Positions 11 to 63,496 of a stretch of 64,000 nt of DNA are shown piece by piece (the first letter of the stretch is position 1; the number at the start of each line of letters is the position of its first letter). The notes beneath the pieces were generated by a model. It saw only the letters and a list, made by a program, of their open reading frames with translations, ran no database searches and was not told the origin of the DNA. The position numbers were made by a program, and so were the translations under genes. Origin of the DNA: Escherichia coli. GTDB taxonomy: Bacteria > Pseudomonadota > Gammaproteobacteria > Enterobacterales > Enterobacteriaceae. The DNA is taken from assembly GCF_024298765.1 (NCBI RefSeq), contig NZ_CP101210.1; one strand, given 5' to 3'.

Positions 11-1189
11 GTGACTATGCGTCTGTTTTCTATTCCTCCGCCCACGCTACTGGCGGGGTTTCTGGCGGTATTAATTGGCTACGCCAGTTCAGCGGCAATA
101 ATCTGGCAAGCAGCGATTGTCGCCGGAGCCACCACTGCACAAATCTCTGGCTGGATGACGGCGCTGGGGCTGGCAATGGGCGTCAGTACGCTGGCTCTGA
201 CATTATGGTATCGCGTACCTGTTCTCACCGCATGGTCAACGCCTGGCGCGGCTTTGTTGGTCACCGGATTACAGGGACTAACACTTAACGAAGCCATCGG
301 CGTTTTTATTGTCACCAACGCGTTAATAGTCCTCTGCGGCATAACGGGACTCTTTGCTCGTCTGATGCGCATTATTCCGCACTCGCTTGCGGCGGCAATG
401 CTTGCCGGGATTTTATTACGCTTTGGTTTAAAGGCGTTTGCGAGCCTGGATGGTCAATTTACGTTGTGTGGCAGTATGTTGCTGGTATGGCTGGCAACCA
501 AGGCCGTTGCGCCGCGCTATGCGGTAATTGCCGCAATGATTATTGGGATCGTCATCGTTATCGCACAAGGTGACGTTGTCACAAATGATGTTGTCTTTAA
601 ACCCGTTCTCCCCACTTATATTACCCCTGATTTTTCGTTTGCTCACAGCCTGAGCGTTGCACTCCCCCTTTTTCTGGCGACGATGGCATCGCAAAACGCA
701 CCGGGTATCGCAGCAATGAAAGCAGCTGGATATTCGGCTCCTGTTTCGCCATTAATTGTGTTTACTGGATTGCTGGCACTGTTTTTTTCCCCTTTCGGCG
801 TTTATTCCGTCGGTATTGCGGCAATCACCGCGGCTATTTGCCAAAGCCCGGAAGCGCATCCGGATAAAGATCAACGTTGGCTGGCCGCTGCCGTTGCCGG
901 CATTTTTTATTTGATCGCAGGTCTGTTTGGTAGTGCCATTACCGGGATGATGGCTGCCCTGCCCGTAAGTTGGATCCAGATGCTGGCAGGTCTTGCGCTG
1001 TTGAGTACCATTGGCGGCAGTTTGTATCAGGCGCTGCATAATGAGCGTGAGCGCGACGCGGCGGTGGTGGCATTTCTGGTAACGGCAAGTGGATTGACGC
1101 TGGTCGGGATTGGTTCTGCGTTCTGGGGATTAATTGCCGGAGGCGTTTGTTACGTGGTGTTGAATTTAATCGCTAACAGAAACCGATAA
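11..1189 (+). CDS. ydcO: BenE-family (benzoate transporter-like) inner membrane protein YdcO
   Basis: 392-aa ORF (GTG start at 11), polytopic hydrophobic protein; length and position convergent with ydcL match E. coli ydcO. Confidence 0.8.
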   Translation: MTMRLFSIPPPTLLAGFLAVLIGYASSAAIIWQAAIVAGATTAQISGWMTALGLAMGVSTLALTLWYRVPVLTAWSTPGAALLVTGLQGLTLNEAIGVFIVTNALIVLCGITGLFARLMRIIPHSLAAAMLAGILLRFGLKAFASLDGQFTLCGSMLLVWLATKAVAPRYAVIAAMIIGIVIVIAQGDVVTNDVVFKPVLPTYITPDFSFAHSLSVALPLFLATMASQNAPGIAAMKAAGYSAPVSPLIVFTGLLALFFSPFGVYSVGIAAITAAICQSPEAHPDKDQRWLAAAVAGIFYLIAGLFGSAITGMMAALPVSWIQMLAGLALLSTIGGSLYQALHNERERDAAVVAFLVTASGLTLVGIGSAFWGLIAGGVCYVVLNLIANRNR

Positions 1190-1195
1190 TAAAAA

Positions 1196-1215
1196 GCGCC
1201 ATCTAACGATGGCGC
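1196..1215. terminator. Bidirectional hairpin between convergent ydcO and ydcL (gcgccatc-taac-gatggcgc)
   Basis: Perfect 8-bp inverted repeat, A-run on one side, sits in the 34-nt gap between two stop codons. Confidence 0.6.
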
Positions 1216-1223
1216 AACTGGTA

Positions 1224-1892
1224 TTACTTTTTGTTAACGTCAAACATGGTGGCATCGGTCGCCATGTCATCAATAACTTGTTTAATATTTTCGAAAGCCA
1301 TTGGCGTACTTTCGTTATTCAGGTCTTTACCTTCGCCCTGACGAACGACTTTGATAACCGGTTTATTAGTCGCTGCATCAATCAGCTCACCTTCAAAATA
1401 CAGGCGAGTATCCATGGTACGGTGGCCCGTCGCCATTTGCGTCCCCGCAACCACTAATGCAACAGGAACCACTTCATAGAATTGCAGCCCTTCTTTGCTG
1501 GTATCTACACCGGTAATGGCCCCACGGAAAATCAGACTACGCGGCCCAGCGGTGGTAACCAGTGGTTTACGCTGCGCAATCGCTTCTTTCATTTCGGTGT
1601 TGGTATAACTCAAAATTTTATCCAGAACTTTCTGCCCTACCTGGGTAGATGGTTTCGGTACCGGATAATAAGTGACTGGGTTCCAGACGATGCTGTCATA
1701 TTTGCTTTGATCAAAACTCGGGTCTACCCAACGTAAAACAGGTTTACCTGTTGCTGAGGTTGTTTCTTTTAAATCAGAGTAATTGTTTAAAAAACCAGAA
1801 TATTTATCTGGCTGGGTGATTTTAGAGGCACAACCAGACAGAGCCAACAAGCCGCATAAAGCTGCAACTTTCGCAATTGATGTGGTACGCAT
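1224..1892 (-). CDS. ydcL: Lipoprotein YdcL
   Basis: 222-aa ORF with lipoprotein signal peptide and lipobox (LALSGC); synteny downstream of tehB. Confidence 0.85.
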   Translation of the reverse strand: MRTTSIAKVAALCGLLALSGCASKITQPDKYSGFLNNYSDLKETTSATGKPVLRWVDPSFDQSKYDSIVWNPVTYYPVPKPSTQVGQKVLDKILSYTNTEMKEAIAQRKPLVTTAGPRSLIFRGAITGVDTSKEGLQFYEVVPVALVVAGTQMATGHRTMDTRLYFEGELIDAATNKPVIKVVRQGEGKDLNNESTPMAFENIKQVIDDMATDATMFDVNKK

Positions 1893-2005
1893 GAATAGTT
1901 TCCTGAGATGATTATATTACTTTCTAAGTTATAGCAAAAAGCGCCGCTTCGTGTTGTGGCAAAAAAAGTGTTGGTGAAAATAAATTTTTTAGCCCCTTTT
2001 CAGAC

Positions 2006-2068
2006 GACATAGTCAATGCCGAAAAAGACATAGTCAATGCCGAAAAAGGGGCTGCCGAAAAAGGGGCT
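2006..2068. repeat. Tandem 21-bp direct repeat (gacatagtcaatgccgaaaaa x2) plus partial third unit, nested in inverted repeat agcccctttt/aaaaggggct
   Basis: Read directly in the tehB-ydcL intergenic region. Confidence 0.85.
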
Positions 2069-2230
2069 AAGTCAATCATCAGTAGTTAAATTTCAGTAAG
2101 TTAAGCTGCTAAAAAATTTCGACTACTGTGATTAATTTCACATCCATTCGATAAAAAATATGCTTACCGAAAAGAAGAACAGTAAACCATCTCAGCGTGG
2201 GGAATTTTCACGCGCCTTGTTCCTAGCGGG

Positions 2231-2824
2231 TCATTTTTTACGTGCCAGCATCGTGGCGAAACGCAGTTTAATACGATTACCGTTGGCGTCGGTGCGGTGC
2301 AGCTCGCCGACGTCTTCATTGTATTTCACCATCTCCCAGCCTTCGTAATATCGACGTAATTCCCCCTCTTTGAAGGCAAACGGGAAGCCGACGGTACATG
2401 GATAATCAGCGGTATCCATCGCCGCCACAATCAGGTTGTAACCGCCAGGTTTAGTGCAACGTTGCATATTGGCAATCAGCCCTGGGATGGTTTTAGCCTC
2501 AAGGAACATCAGCACCACAGTCGAAAGAATAAAATCATACTGTCCATCAAATGTGAGGTTATTCAGATCAACGACCCGGGTGTGTAAATTCTCCAGATTT
2601 TCAATGGATTTAATCCGCTCGACGTTGGCGATACTCATGGCATTTTTATCCCATGCGTCAACATCATAACCATTGGCTGCCAGGTAAAGACTGTTACGAC
2701 CATTGCCACAGCCCAGATCCAGCGTTTTACCCGGTTTAACCACTTTCACCGCTTCCAGCACTTCAGAGTGTGTGCGAGTTAATTCATATTTATCAGTAAA
2801 ATAGTTTTCGTCACGAATGATCAT
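2231..2824 (-). CDS. tehB: Tellurite resistance SAM-dependent methyltransferase TehB
   Basis: 197-aa ORF recognised as TehB ([22 protein letters not shown]..., [14 protein letters not shown] motif); overlaps tehA stop by 4 nt. Confidence 0.95.
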
Positions 2825-3813
2825 TCTTTGTCCTCTGCTTTCATTAAAACGGCGCGCTCGGTTCTGATTAACAATTTTCCCTGCATCAGAAGCGCAAAAG
2901 TACGGATGAGCAGTATTGCAATAATAAAATTGGTAAAGATAAACAGCGGCACCGCCAGCGTATGGAAAAATCCATTATCGCTGCCACTCCCCAGATGCAA
3001 ACCGGTGGTTGCCAGTGCAGATACGCCGAACGAGAAACTCCAGAATGAAGCATTAAATGGCTGGGAGAGATACCATGGCATCAGACGTAGCATAAACAGC
3101 AGTTGCAGCAGTCCATAACCGAAAAGCATTTTCGCCAGCGTGTCACCCTCGCCGCCGTTGACGCTCAGCCAGGCACTACAGGCCACCAGCGCAGGAGCGA
3201 GCTGAATGCCGAGTGATGTCCGCAGCGCCGTGGGTAATTCTCCCGAACTGCGCAGACGCTGCAAGATCACAGGTTCAAGGCTTAGCCATGAGAAAACGCC
3301 TGCGCCTAAAAACACCAGACCGGCGTCGGTGTAGCCCAACGCACCACAGGCCATTGCGCTGATAAAGTTGTTGGCAACTGTCGGCAGATACAGTCCAGGC
3401 GTGGTAGCTTCTTCAGGGTGAGATCCGCGCCATAATCCCGCAGTTTGCCAGGCGGCATAAGCCAACTGAACCACGACGCCAAAACTGAACAGGCACACCG
3501 CCAGTGGGCGAAACCACGGAACAAAACCAATCGCCACCAGCATCGTCGTTGCCGGAAACAAACTCACAAAACTGCTCAGCACTGGATGGCGCACTTCCGC
3601 CAGCACGCTATGCGGAAAGCGTATGAGTCGGGTAATAAATGCGCTAGTTAATAATCCCCAGATGATCATCGCCAGAATCACCAGCCCATCCCCTAACCAG
3701 TGGCTGACCTGCCAAACCTGGCTGGCATAGCGCCAGGCAAATCCCATCCCTATCGTCCCCAACACAATACCAAAGTAGCCTGCCGGCAAATTGAGCACTT
3801 TATCGCTCTGCAT
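2821..3813 (-). CDS. tehA: Tellurite resistance / dicarboxylate-transporter family membrane protein TehA
   Basis: ORF 2821..3921; start set at internal Met ([19 protein letters not shown]...) to give the 330-aa TehA. Confidence 0.9.
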
Positions 3814-3936
3814 CTTCTTACTCATTTTGTTTAATTTATAAAGTATATTTGAAATGCATTTTATGGAATTTTCTCGAGCATAGCCAGAGCCGCAGAATTT
3901 GCTACGGTTATAGTAAGTCACCTGTGGGAAAACGCT

Positions 3937-4917
3937 ATGCGCAAATATCGTCTAAGTGAAGAACAGCGAGCCTTTAGTTATCAGGATGATGGCACTAAAA
4001 AAAGTGTGTTATTACGGCAGATTATCGCCATGAGCGATTTTAACGATGTGATAGCAGAAACCGCTGGCGGCTGGATCGATCGCGAAACGGTGTTAGCACA
4101 GGAAGGAAATTGCTGGATTTACGACCAGAATGCTATTGCGTTCGGCGGAACGGTGATATCCGGGAATACGCGTATCACCGGCACCAGCGTGCTGTGGGGA
4201 GAGGTTTACGCAACGGATAATGTCTGGATCGATAATAGTGAAATCAGCCAAGGTGCATATATAAGTGACAGCGTCACCATTCGTGACTCATTAGTTTGTG
4301 GTCAATGTAGAATATTTGGTCACGCCTTAATTGATCAACATTCTATGATCGTCGCCGCACAAGGCTTAACGCCCGACCATCAACTCCTGCTACAAATTTA
4401 TGATCGCGCAAGGGTTAGCGCCTCGCGTATTGTTCACCAGGCACAAATTTATGGCGATGCCGTCGTCCGGTATGCTTTTATTGAACATCGCGCCGAAGTT
4501 TTTGATTTTGCCAGCGTTGAAGGTAATGAAGAGAACAACGTCTGGCTATGCGATTGCGCTAAAGTCTACGGTCACGCGCAGGTGAAAGCTGGCATAGAAG
4601 AAGATGCCATTCCGACGATTCATTACAGTTCGCAGGTGGCGGAATATGCCATTGTGGAAGGTAATTGTGTGTTAAAACATCATGTCTTGATTGGCGGAAA
4701 TGCCGTGGTACGTGGCGGACCGATTCTGCTCGACGAGCACGTTGTAATACAAGGTGAGAGCCGTATTACAGGTGCGGTGATAATTGAAAAACATGTGGAG
4801 TTAACCGACCACGCCGTCGTTGAAGCCTTTGATGGCGACACGGTTCATGTCCGTGGTCCAAAAGTCATTAACGGCGAGGAGCGCATTACGCGAACGCCGC
4901 TGGCAGGGTTATTGTGA
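3937..4917 (+). CDS. ydcK: Uncharacterized protein YdcK (left-handed beta-helix / hexapeptide-repeat like)
   Basis: 326-aa ORF divergent from tehA; repetitive V/I-x-G pattern; synteny. Confidence 0.8.
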
Positions 4918-5448
4918 ATCGATAATACGCGCGTATAAGTTCACATCATCATAGGCATCATTCAGGAACTCAGCCTGTTTCAGACAACCTTCAAGGATAA
5001 AACCATTGCGCAAAGCGACCTGGTTGCTTTGCGCATTGTCCACCCGACATTTGATCACGAAGCGTCTAAGTTCACCAGACTGAGCGTAATGATGAATCAA
5101 TGCCTGCAGCGCCTGAGAAATGATCCCCTGCCCCTGATAAGATTCGTCCAGCCAGTAGCCAATTTCAGCGGTTTTATTCAGTGGTTCAATACGATTAAAC
5201 GAGATAACGCCGATAAGTTCATCTTCTTTGAAAATCATGAACATTTTGGCATAGCCGCGTTGATGCAACATCACATTACCCTGCACCGTTTTTCGCGTGT
5301 CCTCTTCACTTTGAACAAACTGCGGCCAGTTTAGCGACTGCTGTAACCAGGTTTTATTTTTACAGATTAACTGATAAAGAGGTGTGACGTGATTTTCTGC
5401 AACAGCATGTAATTCAAGTGATTCGCTTACTTTTATCGTTTCAGTCAT
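4909..5448 (-). CDS. rimL: Ribosomal-protein-L7/L12-serine N-acetyltransferase RimL (GNAT)
   Basis: ORF 4909..5463; start set at [16 protein letters not shown] (179 aa); GNAT acetyl-CoA motif [10 protein letters not shown]. Confidence 0.9.
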
Positions 5449-5474
5449 CTTATCTCCAGTCAATCCATGCAGTT

Positions 5475-5501
5475 GTTAAAAAAGCCGCCTGGCTGGCGGC
5501 T
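5475..5501 (-). terminator. Rho-independent terminator after ydcH
   Basis: Hairpin agccgcc-tggctg-ggcggct followed on the minus strand by a U6 run. Confidence 0.7.
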
Positions 5502-5510
5502 TAGGAAAGT

Positions 5511-5735
5511 TTACACCTCTTTGACGCTCTCCTGCTGCAGGATTTTGAGCATCTCATCTTTTAACTGTAGCTTTTGTTTTTTCATGCGGACCACTTCCGC
5601 ATTGTACCCTCGACCGTCGGAACCTTCCTTTCTGGCAATTTCATGATCAAGTTTATTGTGTTTATCGAACAAGGACATAAAGCGAGGATTTTCGTTTTTC
5701 AGACGGGATATTAAATCTCGGTATTCTGGAAACAT
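5511..5735 (-). CDS. ydcH: DUF465-family small protein YdcH
   Basis: 74-aa ORF (MFPEYRDLISRLKNENPRF...), synteny between rimL and opgD. Confidence 0.8.
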   Translation of the reverse strand: MFPEYRDLISRLKNENPRFMSLFDKHNKLDHEIARKEGSDGRGYNAEVVRMKKQKLQLKDEMLKILQQESVKEV

Positions 5736-5874
5736 ACGCACTCCCTGTTAGTGGCTGACAAGGTGTATCTGAAATACACACCATCAGATTACTCATTTAA
5801 CTTAGGGAAAAATGCGAGCGGGATCGTGTTTAACCAGACGGCACCTCCCGAAGAAGGTGCCGAAGAAAAAACGA

Positions 5875-7530
5875 CTAACTCATCACGCGGTCGTCAACAT
5901 ACTGACGTTTATCCGGCGCTGGCGGGAAATACTGATAGAGCCATGTTTCACTGATAGCGTCGCCCTGACAACGCAGATACATCCGCATATCGACCGGATC
6001 AGTGGAGTCCGAAGTCGGATACCAGTCAAACTGAATACGATAACCATCAATGGGTTCAATATAGAGAATTTCGATTTGCTTCGCTTCCCCACTGGAAAGC
6101 GTAATCACCGGCTCAATGCCTTTTGGCGCGGCAGCTTTCAGATCACCACCAACGAAATCGACGGCAAAACGACGCGCCCATTTTTCGGGATAGTGTTCAC
6201 CTGGCGCCCAACCTTCCGGGAAACCGCCCATGCCGGTACGCGTCGCCATAACGCGCGCTAATGGGCAATGAACAGGCGGTTGCGCACTCCAGTACAGACG
6301 ATACTGGAATGCAAACTCATCACCCGCTTTCACAGCTTTTTCTGGCTGCCAGAAGCAGACAATGTTATCCAGCGTTTCGCCCGTTGTTGGGATTTCCATC
6401 AGGCCGATGGTGCCCTTACCCCACTTGTTACGCGGCTCCACCCACAGACTTGGGCGTTTGTTATACCAGCCCATAATGTCCTGATAATGGGAGAAATCAC
6501 GATCCAGTTGCAATAAACCAAACCCTTTCGGGTTGTTGTCGGTGTAAGCATTGAACTGCAATTTTTGCGGATTATTCAGCGGACGACAAATCCACTCGCC
6601 ATTGCCCCGCCACATGGACAGACGATCTGAGTCATGGATTTGCGGATGAATGGTGTCGCACATCCGACGTTCATTAGTACCGCAGCTGAACATGCTGGTC
6701 ATCGGCGCAATGCCCAGCTGTTTAATGTCTTTGCGCGCATACAGGTGATTTTCCACATCCATAATCACCTGACTTTTCTCACAATGGATAGTGAACTTAT
6801 AGGCACCAGTAATGCTGGCGCTATCGAGCAACGCATAAACGGTAAAGGTGGTTGCCCCCGGTTTTACCGTATCAAACCAGAAGTCAGTAAAGTCGGGGAA
6901 CTCTTCTTTACTGTCGGTGTAAGTGTCGATCGCCAGGCCGCGGGCCGACAAACCGTATTGATATGTATCATCAACCGCGCGGAAATAACTCGCGCCGAGG
7001 AATGATACGACATCACGGCGCGCCAGTTCGGGGGCTTTAAACACGCGAAAACCGGCAAAACCGAGATCGCTTTGCCCTTCTAATTGTTTGGTATCAACAC
7101 CCGCATCGTTGTATTTGAACAACTCCGGGCGAAAGTGAATTTCACGCGCCAGATGTGTTGCGGGATCAACAGAAAACATACGAACGCGGCGACGGAATCC
7201 CATTCCCATATGGAAGAACTGAGCGTCCAGTTGACGGTTCTCAACGTTATGCCAGAGCGATTTTTCGGCGTCGTATTGAATACTGTTATAAGCCTGCGGC
7301 GTCATTGTCGCCAGAGTGTCAGGTAACGGACGCGGCGCACCACGCCACGCTGTTTGCGCTAAGTCGTGCGCCATTGACTGTAGAATGGAGAAGTCAAAAC
7401 GTTGGGTTTGCCCGTCGGCAATATCAGAATCTGCCGCGAATGCCGCCTGAGAAAAAAGAGAAGCAATGCCGCTGGTACCGCACACGGCGGCCATAGCCAT
7501 TGAACCTTTAATAAATCGTCTACGATCCAT
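5875..7530 (-). CDS. opgD: Glucans biosynthesis protein D (OpgD/MdoD), Tat-exported periplasmic protein
   Basis: 551-aa ORF with twin-arginine signal [32 protein letters not shown]. Confidence 0.95.
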
Positions 7531-22184: not shown

Positions 22185-25248
<3,064 letters not shown>

Positions 25249-59810: not shown

Positions 59811-60710
59811 CTAAACAGCACCTTTATACTTCAGCCTATCTATAAATAATGAGAATGCCGAGCCAGCATGTCGACGGTGTGGATAGTACAGGTGATAACC
59901 GGGTAAATCTGGTGTGAATTTATCCAAAACACGTATCAGTTTTTTTTCTTTAATAGCCCGCTCAACCTGATCATAAGGTAGATACGCCAATCCATGCCCA
60001 TCAATTGCAGCATCAATGATCAGGTCTATCGTATTCAGTAAAAGCTGACCTTCCATGCGAACACGAACTTCACGTCCACCGCGTATTAATCTCCAGCGAT
60101 TTGCTGTACCCGATGTGGGAAGATACAAATTAATTGCCTGATGATCTATTAATTGTGACACTGAGGTTGGAGCACTTCGACGAGAAAAATAATCCGGTGA
60201 GCCAACAATAGCCATTGGTATATCTGGCCCGATTCGAATGGCGATCATATCTTTATCCATCTCCCCACCCAGACGGACGCCTGCATCAAAACGTTCAGAA
60301 ACGACATCGGTCAAACCATAATCAATGGTAAGCTGGATATCAATTTCAGGATGCGATTTCAGGAATGTGCGCATAGCTGGTAACAATATCGTTTTTGCTG
60401 CATGTTCTACAGTAGTAATACGTATTGTCCCGGATGGGCGGTTCTGCAGATCGCTCAGGGATGTCAGGGCAGAATCTATGTCATGCAACATAGGGCCAAG
60501 AACAGACAAAAGATGCTCGCCCGCTTCAGTGGGTACAACGCTGCGCGTGGTTCGTGTCAGAAGCCGCAATCCCAATCGTTCTTCTATACGGCGCACTATC
60601 TGGCTTAAAGCTGACTGCGCCATGCTCAGGCGGGCTGCTGCGCGAGTGAAGCTACGCTCCTCTGCAACGACGACAAACGCCATCAGATCAGCGATTTCTT
60701 CACGCTTCAT
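59811..60710 (-). CDS. pgrR: LysR-family regulator YcjZ (PgrR, regulator of peptidoglycan recycling)
   Basis: 299-aa ORF with N-terminal LysR HTH; divergent from ycjY. Confidence 0.9.
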   Translation of the reverse strand: MKREEIADLMAFVVVAEERSFTRAAARLSMAQSALSQIVRRIEERLGLRLLTRTTRSVVPTEAGEHLLSVLGPMLHDIDSALTSLSDLQNRPSGTIRITTVEHAAKTILLPAMRTFLKSHPEIDIQLTIDYGLTDVVSERFDAGVRLGGEMDKDMIAIRIGPDIPMAIVGSPDYFSRRSAPTSVSQLIDHQAINLYLPTSGTANRWRLIRGGREVRVRMEGQLLLNTIDLIIDAAIDGHGLAYLPYDQVERAIKEKKLIRVLDKFTPDLPGYHLYYPHRRHAGSAFSLFIDRLKYKGAV

Positions 60711-60749
60711 TCAGTATCTCCATACAATCTATTAATCATTTAAATGATA

Positions 60750-60777
60750 GGTCTAATCATGATTTTGGGTCTAATCA
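60750..60777. promoter_or_regulatory. Direct repeats ggtctaatca (x2, 18-bp period) plus palindrome atcatttaaatgat in the ycjZ-ycjY divergent promoter
   Basis: Read directly; candidate LysR-type operator. Confidence 0.4.
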
Positions 60778-60835
60778 ACTTAATGATCAATATCTATAGT
60801 GATATCACCAACCGTCAAAACGAACCGACAACTCC

Positions 60836-61768
60836 ATGAGGAACGGAATGATGAATAATAAAGTCAGCTTCACTAACAGCAATAATCCAACCATCTCTTT
60901 GTCTGCAGTGATCTATTTCCCTCCAAAATTTGATGAAACCCGTCAGTATCCGGCAATTGTGGTATCTCACCCAGGTGGGGGCGTTAAAGAGCAAACGGCT
61001 GGAACCTATGCCGAAAAACTGGCGGAAAAGGGATTTGTCACTATTGCTTATGACGCATCTTATCAAGGTGAAAGCGGCGGCGAGCCGCGTCAGTTAGAAA
61101 ACCCATACATTCGTACTGAAGACGTCAGTGCCGTGATTGATTACCTGACAACGCTTTCTTATGTCGACAATAGCCGAATTGGTGCGATGGGAATTTGTGC
61201 CGGTGCAGGATATACAGCCAATGCTGCAATTCAGGATCGCCGCATCAAGGCCATCGGTACTGTTAGTGCGGTCAATATTGGTTCGATGTTCCGTAATGGT
61301 TGGGAAAACAATGTGAAATCTATAGATGCCCTACCATACGTTGACGCGGGTTCAAACGCCCGAACCAGCGATATTAGCAGCAGAGAATACGCCACTATGC
61401 CACTGGCACCAATGAAGGAGTCCGATGCGCCGAACGAAGAACTGCGTCAGGCCTGGGAGTATTACCATACCCCTCGCGCGCAGTATCCAACAGCACCGGG
61501 TTACGCTACTTTGCGCAGCCTTAACCAGATTATTACCTATGATGCTTACCATATGGCGGAAGTGTACCTGACTCAGCCGATACAGATTGTGGCGGGCAGC
61601 CAGGCAGGGAGCAAATGGATGAGTGACGACCTGTACGATCGAGCATCAAGCCAGGATAAACGCTATCACATTGTTGAAGGCGCAAACCATATGGATCTTT
61701 ATGACGGCAAAGTCTATGTGGCTGAAGCAATTTCAGTATTAGCTCCGTTCTTTGAGGAAACTCTGTAA
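60836..61768 (+). CDS. ycjY: Alpha/beta-hydrolase YcjY
   Basis: 310-aa ORF (start may be a few codons later), synteny. Confidence 0.8.
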   Translation: MRNGMMNNKVSFTNSNNPTISLSAVIYFPPKFDETRQYPAIVVSHPGGGVKEQTAGTYAEKLAEKGFVTIAYDASYQGESGGEPRQLENPYIRTEDVSAVIDYLTTLSYVDNSRIGAMGICAGAGYTANAAIQDRRIKAIGTVSAVNIGSMFRNGWENNVKSIDALPYVDAGSNARTSDISSREYATMPLAPMKESDAPNEELRQAWEYYHTPRAQYPTAPGYATLRSLNQIITYDAYHMAEVYLTQPIQIVAGSQAGSKWMSDDLYDRASSQDKRYHIVEGANHMDLYDGKVYVAEAISVLAPFFEETL

Positions 61769-61838
61769 TGAAACATATTCAAATCCGTAATAGTGATATG
61801 GCCTGGCATATTGCTGCCAATAATCTGGGAAAAGTTTC

Positions 61839-62477
61839 ATGAAAAATGTACTGATTCTTGGTGCTGGCGGTCAGATAGCCCGCCATGTGATTAATCAACT
61901 GGCAGATAAACAAACCATTAAACAAACTTTATTTGCCCGTCAGCCAGCAAAAATCCACAAACCCTATCCCACTAATAGCAAGATTATTATGGGGGATGTA
62001 CTGAATCATGCAGCACTGAAGCAGGCCATGCAGGGACAGGATGTTGTGTATGCCAACCTTACGGGGGAAGATTTAGATATTCAGGCAAATTCAGTGATCG
62101 CTGCGATGAAAGCCGGTGATGTTAAACGTCTGATCTTTGTTCTTTCCCTCGGTATTTATGATGAAGTTCCAGGAAAATTTGGCGAATGGAATAATGCAGT
62201 TATTGGTGAACCCCTAAAACCATTCCGCAGGGCTGCAGATGCAATTGAGGCTTCTGGACTGGAATATACAATTCTTCGCCCTGCCTGGCTGACTGATGAA
62301 GATATTATTGATTATGAGCTTACCTCACGCAATGAACCATTCAAAGGTACGATCGTATCACGTAAGAGTGTCGCAGCATTAATTACAGATATCATCGATA
62401 AACCTGAGAAACACATTGGTGAGAATATAGGAATCAATCAACCCGGGACTGATGGCGATAAGCCATTCTTCATGTAA
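61839..62477 (+). CDS. ymjC: NAD(P)H-binding (NmrA/SDR-like) protein, intact ymjC/ymjD-type gene
   Basis: 212-aa uninterrupted ORF with Rossmann motif GAGGQIA. Confidence 0.7.
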   Translation: MKNVLILGAGGQIARHVINQLADKQTIKQTLFARQPAKIHKPYPTNSKIIMGDVLNHAALKQAMQGQDVVYANLTGEDLDIQANSVIAAMKAGDVKRLIFVLSLGIYDEVPGKFGEWNNAVIGEPLKPFRRAADAIEASGLEYTILRPAWLTDEDIIDYELTSRNEPFKGTIVSRKSVAALITDIIDKPEKHIGENIGINQPGTDGDKPFFM

Positions 62478-62495
62478 ATCAATTATATAGCTACC

Positions 62496-62530
62496 ATCGT
62501 ACTGTACTATGTGCAGTACGATTTATTAAA
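62496..62530 (+). terminator. Hairpin after ymjC (atcgtactg...cagtacgat) followed by T-rich run
   Basis: 9-bp perfect stem. Confidence 0.55.
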
Positions 62531-62642
62531 CTTATTAAGGTGAACTGATCAATCAGATGCGATTAACATGTGTAGAACCAGTAAGAATAAAATACGCCAT
62601 GTATATAACATTACGACAATTCTAATATCTGCACATCAATGA

Positions 62643-62672
62643 AAATGCAAACAACTTCCGGCAAAAAAGTGA
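62643..62672. promoter_or_regulatory. Conserved ~30-nt motif (copy 2, ~95-125 nt upstream of mpaA start)
   Basis: 28/30 identity with copy 1 at 59532-59561. Confidence 0.5.
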
Positions 62673-62767
62673 TACAAGATCGATAACATAGCGTTGAAGA
62701 AAAGGATTTGATAATCCGCAAAATTTGCACAACACTGCCTGTAATACTTCCTGAACCAGAGACGATC

Positions 62768-63496
62768 ATGACCGTAACTCGCCCACGCGCCGAACGCGGC
62801 GCATTTCCGCCCGGTACAGAACATTACGGACGTTCATTATTGGGCGCGCCGTTAATCTGGTTTCCGGCCCCTGCAGCCAGTCACGAAAGTGGTTTGATTC
62901 TGGCTGGCACTCACGGTGATGAAAACTCTTCGATCGTCACGCTCTCCTGTGCTCTGCGGACTTTGACACCGTCTTTGCGCCGCCATCATGTGGTGCTGTG
63001 TGTGAATCCTGACGGCTGCCAGTTAGGGTTACGGGCCAATGCTAATGGTGTGGATTTAAACCGAAACTTTCCGGCGGCGAACTGGAAGGAAGGTGAAACC
63101 GTTTATCGCTGGAACAGCGCCGCTGAAGAACGTGATGTCGTATTGCTGACAGGTGACAAACCTGGCTCCGAACCTGAAACCCAGGCGCTGTGCCAGCTTA
63201 TACACCGCATTCAACCTGCCTGGGTGGTCTCATTCCACGATCCGCTGGCCTGTATTGAAGATCCCAGACACAGCGAATTAGGTGAATGGCTGGCCCAGGC
63301 GTTTGAATTGCCTCTGGTAACCAGCGTCGGTTATGAAACGCCTGGCTCTTTCGGTAGTTGGTGTGCAGATCTCAACTTGCATTGCATCACCGCAGAGTTT
63401 CCACCCATCTCCTCCGACGAAGCCAGCGAAAAATATCTCTTTGCGATGGCAAACTTGCTGCGCTGGCATCCTAAAGATGCAATTCGCCCGTCGTGA
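62768..63496 (+). CDS. mpaA: Murein peptide amidase A (gamma-D-Glu-Dap amidase) MpaA
   Basis: ORF 62708..63496; start set at MTVTRPRAERGAFPPGTEHYG (242 aa); zinc-carboxypeptidase-like HxxE motif. Confidence 0.9.
   Translation: MTVTRPRAERGAFPPGTEHYGRSLLGAPLIWFPAPAASHESGLILAGTHGDENSSIVTLSCALRTLTPSLRRHHVVLCVNPDGCQLGLRANANGVDLNRNFPAANWKEGETVYRWNSAAEERDVVLLTGDKPGSEPETQALCQLIHRIQPAWVVSFHDPLACIEDPRHSELGEWLAQAFELPLVTSVGYETPGSFGSWCADLNLHCITAEFPPISSDEASEKYLFAMANLLRWHPKDAIRPS

Follow-up and report, generated by a model that had tools for sequence, protein, structure and literature searches.

In Escherichia coli, the genes pgrR (ycjZ, minus strand) and ycjY (plus strand) diverge, with 137 bp between them, and the candidate operator region lies in this common spacer. 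The spacer carries a direct repeat and a palindrome, which raises the question of whether these motifs form an operator of the LysR type, through which the regulator controls its own gene and its neighbour, or have some other origin. The window, that is, the whole stretch of DNA that was analysed, comprises 64,000 nt of E. coli chromosome. With a 2.2-kb query around the spacer, complete E. coli genomes gave a match at 95–100% identity in 5242 of 5426 cases, and the annotation under the match reads pgrR (DNA-binding transcriptional regulator), ycjY (alpha/beta hydrolase), and an SDR oxidoreductase. The gene identities given in a preliminary description of this region, pgrR (ycjZ) and ycjY, are therefore those of RefSeq. 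The genes and boundaries of the locus are as follows.

59811–60710, minus strand: coding sequence of pgrR (ycjZ), a LysR-type transcriptional regulator of 299 aa (open reading frame, Pfam, and the RefSeq name "DNA-binding transcriptional regulator PgrR").
60711–60847, no strand: pgrR–ycjY divergent intergenic spacer, 137 nt, 34% G+C, equal to 1391854–1391990 of K-12 MG1655.
60838–60843, plus strand: ribosome-binding site GAGGAA of ycjY, kept in all enteric orthologues (AAGGAA in Serratia proteamaculans).
60848–61768, plus strand: coding sequence of ycjY, an alpha/beta hydrolase of 306 aa and the first gene of the regulated operon (open reading frame, RefSeq, Pfam).
61839–62477, plus strand: intact SDR/NAD(P)-binding gene of 212 aa (open reading frame, NAD_binding_10).
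62768–63496, plus strand: mpaA, murein tripeptide amidase, the last gene of the ycjY operon (open reading frame).

The two Pfam domains of PgrR, HTH_1 (PF00126, residues 7–65, 76.5 bits vs. the cut-off of 26.6) and LysR_substrate (PF03466, residues 90–294, 122.9 bits vs. the cut-off of 28), both score above their cut-offs, and PgrR is therefore a LysR-type protein. Among NCBIfam models, the best matches were YafC and GcvA, and all matches were far below the respective cut-offs. The start of mpaA was set from the 729-nt length of the RefSeq gene; its membership in the ycjY operon comes from RegulonDB, as quoted in PMC5934670. The 212-aa SDR gene is truncated in K-12-like genomes, its remnants in K-12 being ymjD and ymjC.

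One boundary had to be moved. The preliminary description had the spacer end at 60835, in accordance with an older start of ycjY (a 310-aa product, ATG at 60836), whereas the RefSeq product of 306 aa starts with the ATG at 60848. This latter codon and the GAGGAA site are kept in orthologues, while the ATG at 60836 is ATA in S. proteamaculans. With ycjY starting at 60848, the spacer spans 60711–60847 and is 137 nt long, not 125 nt. It differs from the K-12 spacer by two bases, neither of which falls in the conserved core or in the motifs listed here.

60735–60748, no strand: dyad ATCATTTAAATGAT, perfect over 14 bp, the proposed primary recognition site (RBS) of PgrR, with putative protein contact.
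60750–60759, plus strand: copy 1 of GGTCTAATCA, within the spacer of the predicted pgrR promoter, possibly the proximal half of an activation site (ABS').
60768–60777, plus strand: copy 2 of GGTCTAATCA, overlapping the −35 positions of both promoters; its core GTCTAATC (60769–60776) is a deeply conserved box, the proposed activation site (ABS).
60774–60787, no strand: imperfect dyad ATCAACTTAATGAT, the second ATCA-N6-TGAT, 39 bp from the first (repeat search).
60755–60764, no strand: 10-bp palindrome AATCATGATT.
60731–60800, no strand: conserved core of 70 bp, a phylogenetic footprint that extends from the vicinity of the predicted pgrR start to the −10 element of ycjY.

Both sequence features of the preliminary description are there as described. 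The repeat search recovered the two copies of GGTCTAATCA, 100% identical and with a period of 18 bp, and the AT-rich sequence ATCATTTAAATGAT is a perfect reverse-complement palindrome. Without mismatches, GGTCTAATCA is found in the 64-kb window only at these two places. The dyad has the spacing T-N10-A (ATC-N8-GAT) within its 14 bp, which is one base less than the classical T-N11-A. The sequence TAATCATTTAAATGAT is repeated 39 bp downstream as TAATCAACTTAATGAT, and this yields the second ATCA-N6-TGAT; the resulting imperfect dyad contains a GATC site (60785–60788). The short palindrome AATCATGATT is disrupted in most orthologues, which have AATCATTATT, and so it is probably incidental.

To assess chance occurrence, we made 5000 shuffles of the 137-nt spacer preserving the dinucleotide composition. 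An exact direct repeat of at least 10 nt arose in 77 shuffles (1.5%), a perfect palindrome of at least 14 bp also in 77 (1.5%), and both together in a single one (0.02%).

As a side observation, the pattern ATCA-N6-TGAT has nine matches in the 64-kb window, with 1.6 expected. Two of the seven matches other than those considered here were inspected (at 22863 and 22944), and both are in a coding region. We treat the surplus as codon-driven and unrelated to the operator.

The pgrR orthologues were collected in a scan with one genome per species. PgrR proteins 85–88% identical to that of E. coli are present in Citrobacter, Kluyvera, Pseudocitrobacter, Serratia, Shimwellia, and one metagenome-assembled genome (MAG), a 99% identical copy is present in cryptic Escherichia, and a relative with 58% identity in a gammaproteobacterial MAG. 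At every chromosomal locus of the scan with a complete pgrR orthologue, an orthologue of ycjY is divergent from it; the YcjY proteins are 89–97% identical among the enterics and 74% in the gammaproteobacterial MAG. Overall, the divergent regulator/hydrolase pairing is seen at all ten aligned enteric loci, in the gammaproteobacterial MAG, on four alphaproteobacterial plasmids, and on one Klebsiella plasmid.

The 70-bp core is 81–93% identical to its enteric orthologues, whereas four-fold degenerate sites of pgrR and ycjY are only 32–45% identical to E. coli, that is, near saturation. This demonstrates selection on the core. In the enteric alignment, the stretch adjoining the pgrR start cannot be aligned, and the stretch past 60800 is much less conserved. 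Within the core, 10 of the 11 enteric sequences share the palindrome ATCATTTAAATGAT without any change, and ATCA-N6-TGAT is found in all enteric orthologues. The preliminary description had proposed a comparison of the repeats with orthologous promoters, in which a lack of conservation would have spoken against its reading. In this comparison the palindrome and copy 2 of GGTCTAATCA (invariant in 9 of 11 enteric sequences) prove conserved, but copy 1 does so only weakly, reading AGTCCAATCA in most enterics. Among E. coli genomes, the core is identical in 4476 of 5220. We inspected two of its variants: T60766A, found in O157:H7, falls between the two repeats, while C60771T, a natural variant of 54 genomes, is within copy 2.

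More distant regulators were found by tblastn searches of plasmids, the protein word-index search having yielded only relatives with at least 87% identity. Plasmids of Rhizobium tropici, Agrobacterium fabrum, Kozakia baliensis, and A. pusense encode regulators 61–74% identical to PgrR, each divergent from two alpha/beta hydrolase genes, with an SDR gene after these in R. tropici. In addition, a conjugative IncF plasmid of Klebsiella carries the same four-gene cassette beside IS110.

For the deep comparison, the spacers were anchored on the dyad and aligned without gaps. This revealed a fixed order of elements: ATCA-N6-TGAT followed by A, then exactly 20 nt, the box (G/C)TCTAATC, five bases, and AAT; a −10-like hexamer, the first base of which is 26 nt past that of the box; and a conserved C–A pair, in which the A is the seventh base past the hexamer. 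The order holds in E. coli, at ten other enteric loci, and on three alphaproteobacterial plasmids, whose regulators are 69–74% identical to PgrR. Enterics have TATAGT as the hexamer, the R. tropici and A. fabrum plasmids TAGATT, and Kozakia TACCAT. The composite pattern, with 15 specified bases, matches 15 of 21 loci, each time at the position given here.

The elements do not persist equally. The dyad is kept as ATCA-N6-TGAT on all four alphaproteobacterial plasmids, and the box stands 20 nt past it in the enterics and on the plasmids of R. tropici, A. fabrum, and Kozakia. At copy 1, the alphaproteobacterial plasmids have AGGCCTAATA, AAGGCCAAGC, or AGGGCCATGA, with about 5 of 10 bases kept, and of the second dyad ATCAACTTAATGAT just ATC-N6-AAT is conserved there. 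Judging from these alignments, the conserved unit is the dyad with a single box rather than a pair of direct repeats, and the exact 10-bp duplication of GGTCTAATCA is specific to Escherichia.

The conservation of the motifs follows that of the protein. The recognition helix MAQSALSQIVRR is identical in the compared orthologues from enterics, R. tropici, and A. fabrum, and all of these have kept the dyad and the box; so has Kozakia, whose helix IAQSGLSQIVRR differs by two residues. At the two loci where the helix is altered, to IMQR in the gammaproteobacterial MAG and to SGIVRR in A. pusense, the box is lost, and in one of these two the dyad is degenerate. Motifs kept with an unchanged helix and a box lost with a changed one amount to protein–DNA co-conservation. 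The motifs are real and non-random, and they are conserved at fixed spacing along with an unchanged recognition helix.

The position of the motifs relative to promoters depends on the following elements.

60768–60773, minus strand: predicted pgrR −35 element TAGACC (consensus scan, TAGACC-18-TATCAT); TAGAC(C/G) or TAGAGG in orthologues.
60744–60749, minus strand: predicted pgrR −10 element TATCAT, formed by the right arm of the dyad plus A (consensus scan).
Near 60737, minus strand: predicted pgrR start, inside the dyad, placed from the spacing.
60795–60800, plus strand: predicted ycjY −10 element TATAGT; CTATAGT is invariant in 11 enteric sequences.
60772–60777, plus strand: position of the ycjY −35 element, TAATCA, poor (3 of 6 consensus bases) and inside the box.
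60807, plus strand: predicted transcription start of ycjY at A60807, preceded by C and 7 nt past the −10 element; the C–A pair is conserved in enteric and alphaproteobacterial orthologues.

For pgrR, TAGACC-18-TATCAT has already been given as the constitutive promoter by Shimada and colleagues (PMC3946193). The ycjY promoter proposed in the same paper, ATGATA-19-TCTAAT, has a spacer of 20 nt here, and its −10 element lacks the near-invariant A at position 2; we rejected it and prefer the invariant TATAGT. At the offset of CTATAGT, the plasmids of R. tropici and A. fabrum have CTAGATT and that of Kozakia has CTACCAT; in the gammaproteobacterial MAG, CTAGATT stands at a similar offset, one base nearer to the dyad. 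Measured starts of pgrR or ycjY were found neither in the consulted part of the Cappable-seq paper (PMC4782308) nor in the ROSE, Rend-seq annotation, and Romero dRNA-seq literature, and the sole ycjY start of Kim et al., 2012 (PMC3415461) is antisense, inside pgrR.

A distance of 70 bp separates the predicted starts of pgrR and ycjY, with the −35 positions of the two promoters back to back and overlapping. The dyad shares bases with the predicted −10 element and start of pgrR, which lends sequence support to negative autoregulation, and the box shares bases with the −35 position of either promoter. With about A60807 as the predicted ycjY start, the centre of the dyad comes to lie at −65.5 and that of the box at −34.5. 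At LysR-type promoters, the recognition site (RBS) is situated near −65 and the activation site (ABS) near −35. Given the predicted ycjY start, the positions of the dyad and the box would thus be those of the canonical LysR-type RBS/ABS layout.

The PgrR (YcjZ) regulon of E. coli K-12 was reportedly described by Shimada, Yamazaki and Ishihama in 2013, in Genes Cells 18:123. In genomic SELEX, ycjY/ycjZ is among the PgrR peaks (PMC5934670), and the RegulonDB targets of PgrR, as quoted in that paper, are ycjY-ymjDC-mpaA, ycjG, and ycjXF-tyrR. In DAP-seq, the fold change for PgrR at the pgrR promoter is 5632, against 4413 for LacI at lacZYA in the same table (PMC10505187). According to PPTP-seq data from that study, knock-down of PgrR by CRISPRi significantly raises the activity of the pgrR promoter (0.97 in glucose), and a strain with tunable expression of the transcription factor confirms negative autoregulation of pgrR, which the authors link to the binding site reported in 2013 (PMC10505187). 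In three media, the ycjY promoter responds to the knock-down only slightly and without significance (0.60, 0.28, and 0.34), and ycjXF is not affected (PMC10505187). Repression of ycjY from the pgrR–ycjY site is therefore weak in those three media.

We found no "PgrR box" or like term in the literature searched. Neither the ycjG/tpx nor the ycjX/ycjW spacer, both belonging to reported PgrR targets, nor the region upstream of mpaA contains the dyad or the box; upstream of mppA and tyrR, there are one-mismatch dyad-like matches at most. This means that the reported targets at ycjG/tpx and ycjX/ycjW must use different or weaker sites.

Taken together, the 70-bp AT-rich core is very probably a PgrR operator lying over two back-to-back sigma-70 promoters, the precise contacts being predicted. 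The architecture of a LysR-type autoregulatory operator, as suggested in the preliminary description, is supported by the LysR-type Pfam domains, the divergent layout, the conserved motifs, and the published in vitro binding and autoregulation. In the proposed mechanism, one DNA-binding dimer of a PgrR tetramer would sit on the dyad ATCATTTAAATGAT, covering the −10 element and the start of pgrR, and the other dimer on the region of the GTCTAATC box (60750–60790), covering the shared −35 positions. By bridging the dyad and the box region, the tetramer would block both promoters; with both sites occupied, pgrR would be shut (negative autoregulation) and, as we propose, the ycjY–SDR–mpaA operon held down. 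The contacted bases, the starts of both transcripts, and a shift from one copy of GGTCTAATCA to the other in response to a ligand are inferences.

Four other explanations of the motifs were considered. The conserved bases could be nothing else than the sigma-70 elements of overlapping divergent promoters, the repeat and the palindrome being by-products of packing these together, with no regulator site. Indeed, TAGACC-18-TATCAT and TATAGT coincide with conserved bases, and the RNA polymerase sigma-70 holoenzyme alone selects the spacer in genomic SELEX (PMC3946193). Yet some invariant bases lie beyond the hexamers, namely, the ATCA that forms the dyad's left arm, located at the pgrR start or past it, and the ATC by which the box is extended. 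Moreover, the PgrR DAP-seq peak at the pgrR promoter is among the strongest of its table and is accompanied by a SELEX peak (PMC10505187, PMC5934670), and conservation of the motifs goes with that of the regulator's recognition helix. We consider promoter elements improbable as the complete account. They are compatible with a PgrR operator and explain the conservation in part, since the sigma-70 hexamers of both promoters share the bases in question. The conserved bases largely coincide with promoter hexamers, so that contacts of RNA polymerase and of PgrR are inseparable by conservation alone.

A different sigma factor could also be involved. Sigma-E recognizes a −35 element GGAACTT and, about 16 nt from it, a −10 element TCTNA (as in the rpoE P2 and degP promoters) or TCAAA, and GTCTAA resembles TCTNA. 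If the two GTCTAA motifs were −10 elements of sigma-E (RpoE), this would tie ycjY–mpaA and pgrR to envelope stress. Besides this likeness, a strong peak, 17.2, was obtained at the spacer by genomic SELEX with the RpoE holoenzyme, in a study that refers to pgrR and ycjY as "known RpoE-dependent promoters" (PMC5493296). However, on both strands of the spacer, no GGAACTT-like −35 element with up to three mismatches was found 15–17 nt upstream of GTCTAA or of any TC[ATC][AGT]A, and the motif of copy 1 is GTCCAA in most enteric orthologues. As no −35 element stands at the right distance, we rejected a sigma-E promoter here, and the explanation seems quite improbable.

The probability is very low that the repeats arose by chance in AT-rich DNA or are generic sites of nucleoid proteins such as H-NS, devoid of sequence-specific meaning. 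The low G+C content of the spacer, 34%, would be in line with this, and so would the record for H-NS, the knock-down of which raises the activity of the ycjY promoter (0.88, significant) and for which a ChIP-exo peak is recorded (PMC10505187). Still, the joint chance of both features is 0.02%, and conservation base for base and at fixed spacing, across genera and on alphaproteobacterial plasmids, is not expected from binding driven by composition. The shuffles and the phylogenetic footprint thus largely rule out chance or composition as the source.

Finally, a role of the palindromes as RNA, in a leader hairpin, an attenuator, or a small RNA, has next to no probability: although the palindrome, if transcribed, could give a 5-bp hairpin, the spacer strands fold no better than shuffles (z = 0.25 and 0.38), Rfam gives no match up to an E-value of 1, and the core is mostly upstream of both predicted starts, so that an RNA element was rejected on the folding z-scores and the absent Rfam match.

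Returning to the PgrR operator, it can be compared with known systems. With respect to the PgrR (YcjZ) regulon of E. coli K-12, the locus is the same and nothing is biologically different: binding, repression of ycjY-ymjDC-mpaA, and negative autoregulation are on record. As binding of PgrR to the spacer and its self-repression have already been published, the finding is correct but ordinary.

Classical LysR-type divergent promoters, such as those of BenM/benA, CbnR, AtzR, and the NodD nod box, have in common with this locus a divergent regulator gene, self-repression, and a strong dyad over the regulator's own promoter; the putative second, less symmetric site at the −35 position of the target would match theirs as well. 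The nod box of NodD is ATC-N9-GAT, with T-N11-A; the dyad considered here, ATC-N8-GAT (T-N10-A), is one base shorter, and its position is counted from a predicted start. The three sites of the ATCA/TGAT type, with centres 18 and 21 bp apart, resemble BenM sites 1–3, which are 21 bp apart. Unlike the classical regulators, PgrR has so far been described solely as a repressor, with no known inducer.

The AmpR/ampC system is similar in that a LysR-type regulator is divergent from its target and functionally linked to the turnover of murein peptides. AmpR senses intermediates of peptidoglycan recycling. On the other hand, the sequence relationship is at the family level alone, PgrR is without a known ligand, and its target is a hydrolase/SDR/amidase operon, while that of AmpR is a beta-lactamase.

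A more speculative possibility, which we put forward tentatively and think less probable than not, is that PgrR, more than simply a repressor of peptidoglycan recycling, is a conventional inducer-responsive LysR-type activator/repressor of an old, horizontally mobile cassette, to which E. coli added mpaA, and that the duplicated GGTCTAATCA offers alternative docking. The cassette would consist of the regulator, one or two alpha/beta hydrolases, and the SDR. Such an activator would fit with an RBS and an ABS predicted at −65 and −35, respectively, with the poor −35 element of ycjY, and with the low activity of the ycjY promoter, which is barely raised by depletion of PgrR. Were this so, ycjY would need ligand-bound PgrR for activation, and the duplicated GGTCTAATCA would provide one dimer with two identical docking positions 18 bp apart, as in a "sliding dimer" switch.

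Two things are added here to the published picture of PgrR as a repressor of its own gene and of the ycjY operon. The first is a base-level map of the dyad, the box, and the overlapping promoters, which predicts mutations abolishing regulation. The second is the phylogenetic footprint, according to which the operator architecture accompanies a mobile LysR/hydrolase/SDR cassette; this cassette, on which operator and recognition helix are conserved together, also resides on Klebsiella and alphaproteobacterial plasmids. This co-conservation suggests that the chemistry of the hydrolase and the SDR, besides the recycling of murein peptides, is where to look for the natural ligand and the main role of PgrR.

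The sequence ATCA-N6-TGAT, which forms both dyads of the 137-nt pgrR-ycjY spacer (60711-60847), occurs nine times in the 64-kb window, against 1.6 occurrences expected from shuffles. Seven of these sites lie outside the spacer:

15886, 18606, 20828, 22863, 22944, 25508 and 56641: single occurrences of ATCA-N6-TGAT

The two that were inspected, at 22863 and 22944, both fall within a coding region on the minus strand (22185-23576), and the excess is probably an effect of codon usage. Within the spacer, the right arm of the second, imperfect dyad contains one GATC (Dam methylation) site at 60785-60788; several enteric orthologues carry AATAATCA at this position, and hence the site is not conserved.

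A more distant spacer was found in a gammaproteobacterial MAG (L009, 2862-3000), next to a regulator 58% identical to PgrR. It retains a degenerate dyad, ATCACCAGAATAAT, and the -10 element CCTAGATT, while a different perfect 14-bp palindrome, TTGTTAATTAACAA, replaces the TCTAATC box at about the same position. The recognition helix of this orthologue is also altered (IMQR), and the operator and the regulator may have co-evolved.

Expression of ycjY may be governed mainly by regulators other than PgrR. According to the PPTP-seq table (PMC10505187), the ycjY operon promoter has a UlaR DAP-seq peak of 57.5-fold and is up 2.19 on UlaR knock-down in LB; on H-NS knock-down the ycjY promoter is up 0.88, with ChIP-exo support. 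Genomic SELEX has placed RpoE and RpoH holoenzyme peaks in the spacer (intensities 17.2 and 4.4, respectively), at window position ~60779 (K-12 version 2 coordinate 1389946), and its authors termed both pgrR and ycjY RpoE-dependent (PMC5493296). We found no promoter of the sigma-E or sigma-32 type in the spacer sequence. Kim et al. (2012) reported an antisense transcription start in pgrR that lies 667 nt upstream of ycjY and is directed toward it (PMC3415461); their 51-nt sequence maps, with one mismatch, to the plus strand within pgrR (60119-60169).

A pgrR-type LysR gene with two divergent alpha/beta hydrolase genes recurs in plasmid loci (L018-L022) of Rhizobium tropici, Agrobacterium fabrum, Kozakia baliensis, A. 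pusense and Klebsiella. The copies are:

59811-63496, window: E. coli version
3353-6900, L022: plasmid copy
1-3394, L019: plasmid copy
~400-3400, L018, L020 and L021: plasmid copies

The Klebsiella copy resides on a conjugative IncF plasmid and adjoins an IS110, and the alphaproteobacterial plasmid copies adjoin IS or integrase genes. The regulator gene travels with its neighbours as a cassette. An SDR gene lies downstream of the hydrolase genes in the copies from Klebsiella and R. tropici. In the window, an SDR/NAD(P)-binding gene (61839-62477; 212 aa, NAD_binding_10) is intact, whereas K-12 retains only pieces of it, ymjD and ymjC, or has it annotated as a dehydratase that is incomplete. The E. 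coli version has a single hydrolase gene, ycjY, and an added mpaA, encoding murein tripeptide amidase. Consequently, the link of PgrR to murein recycling may be specific to E. coli.
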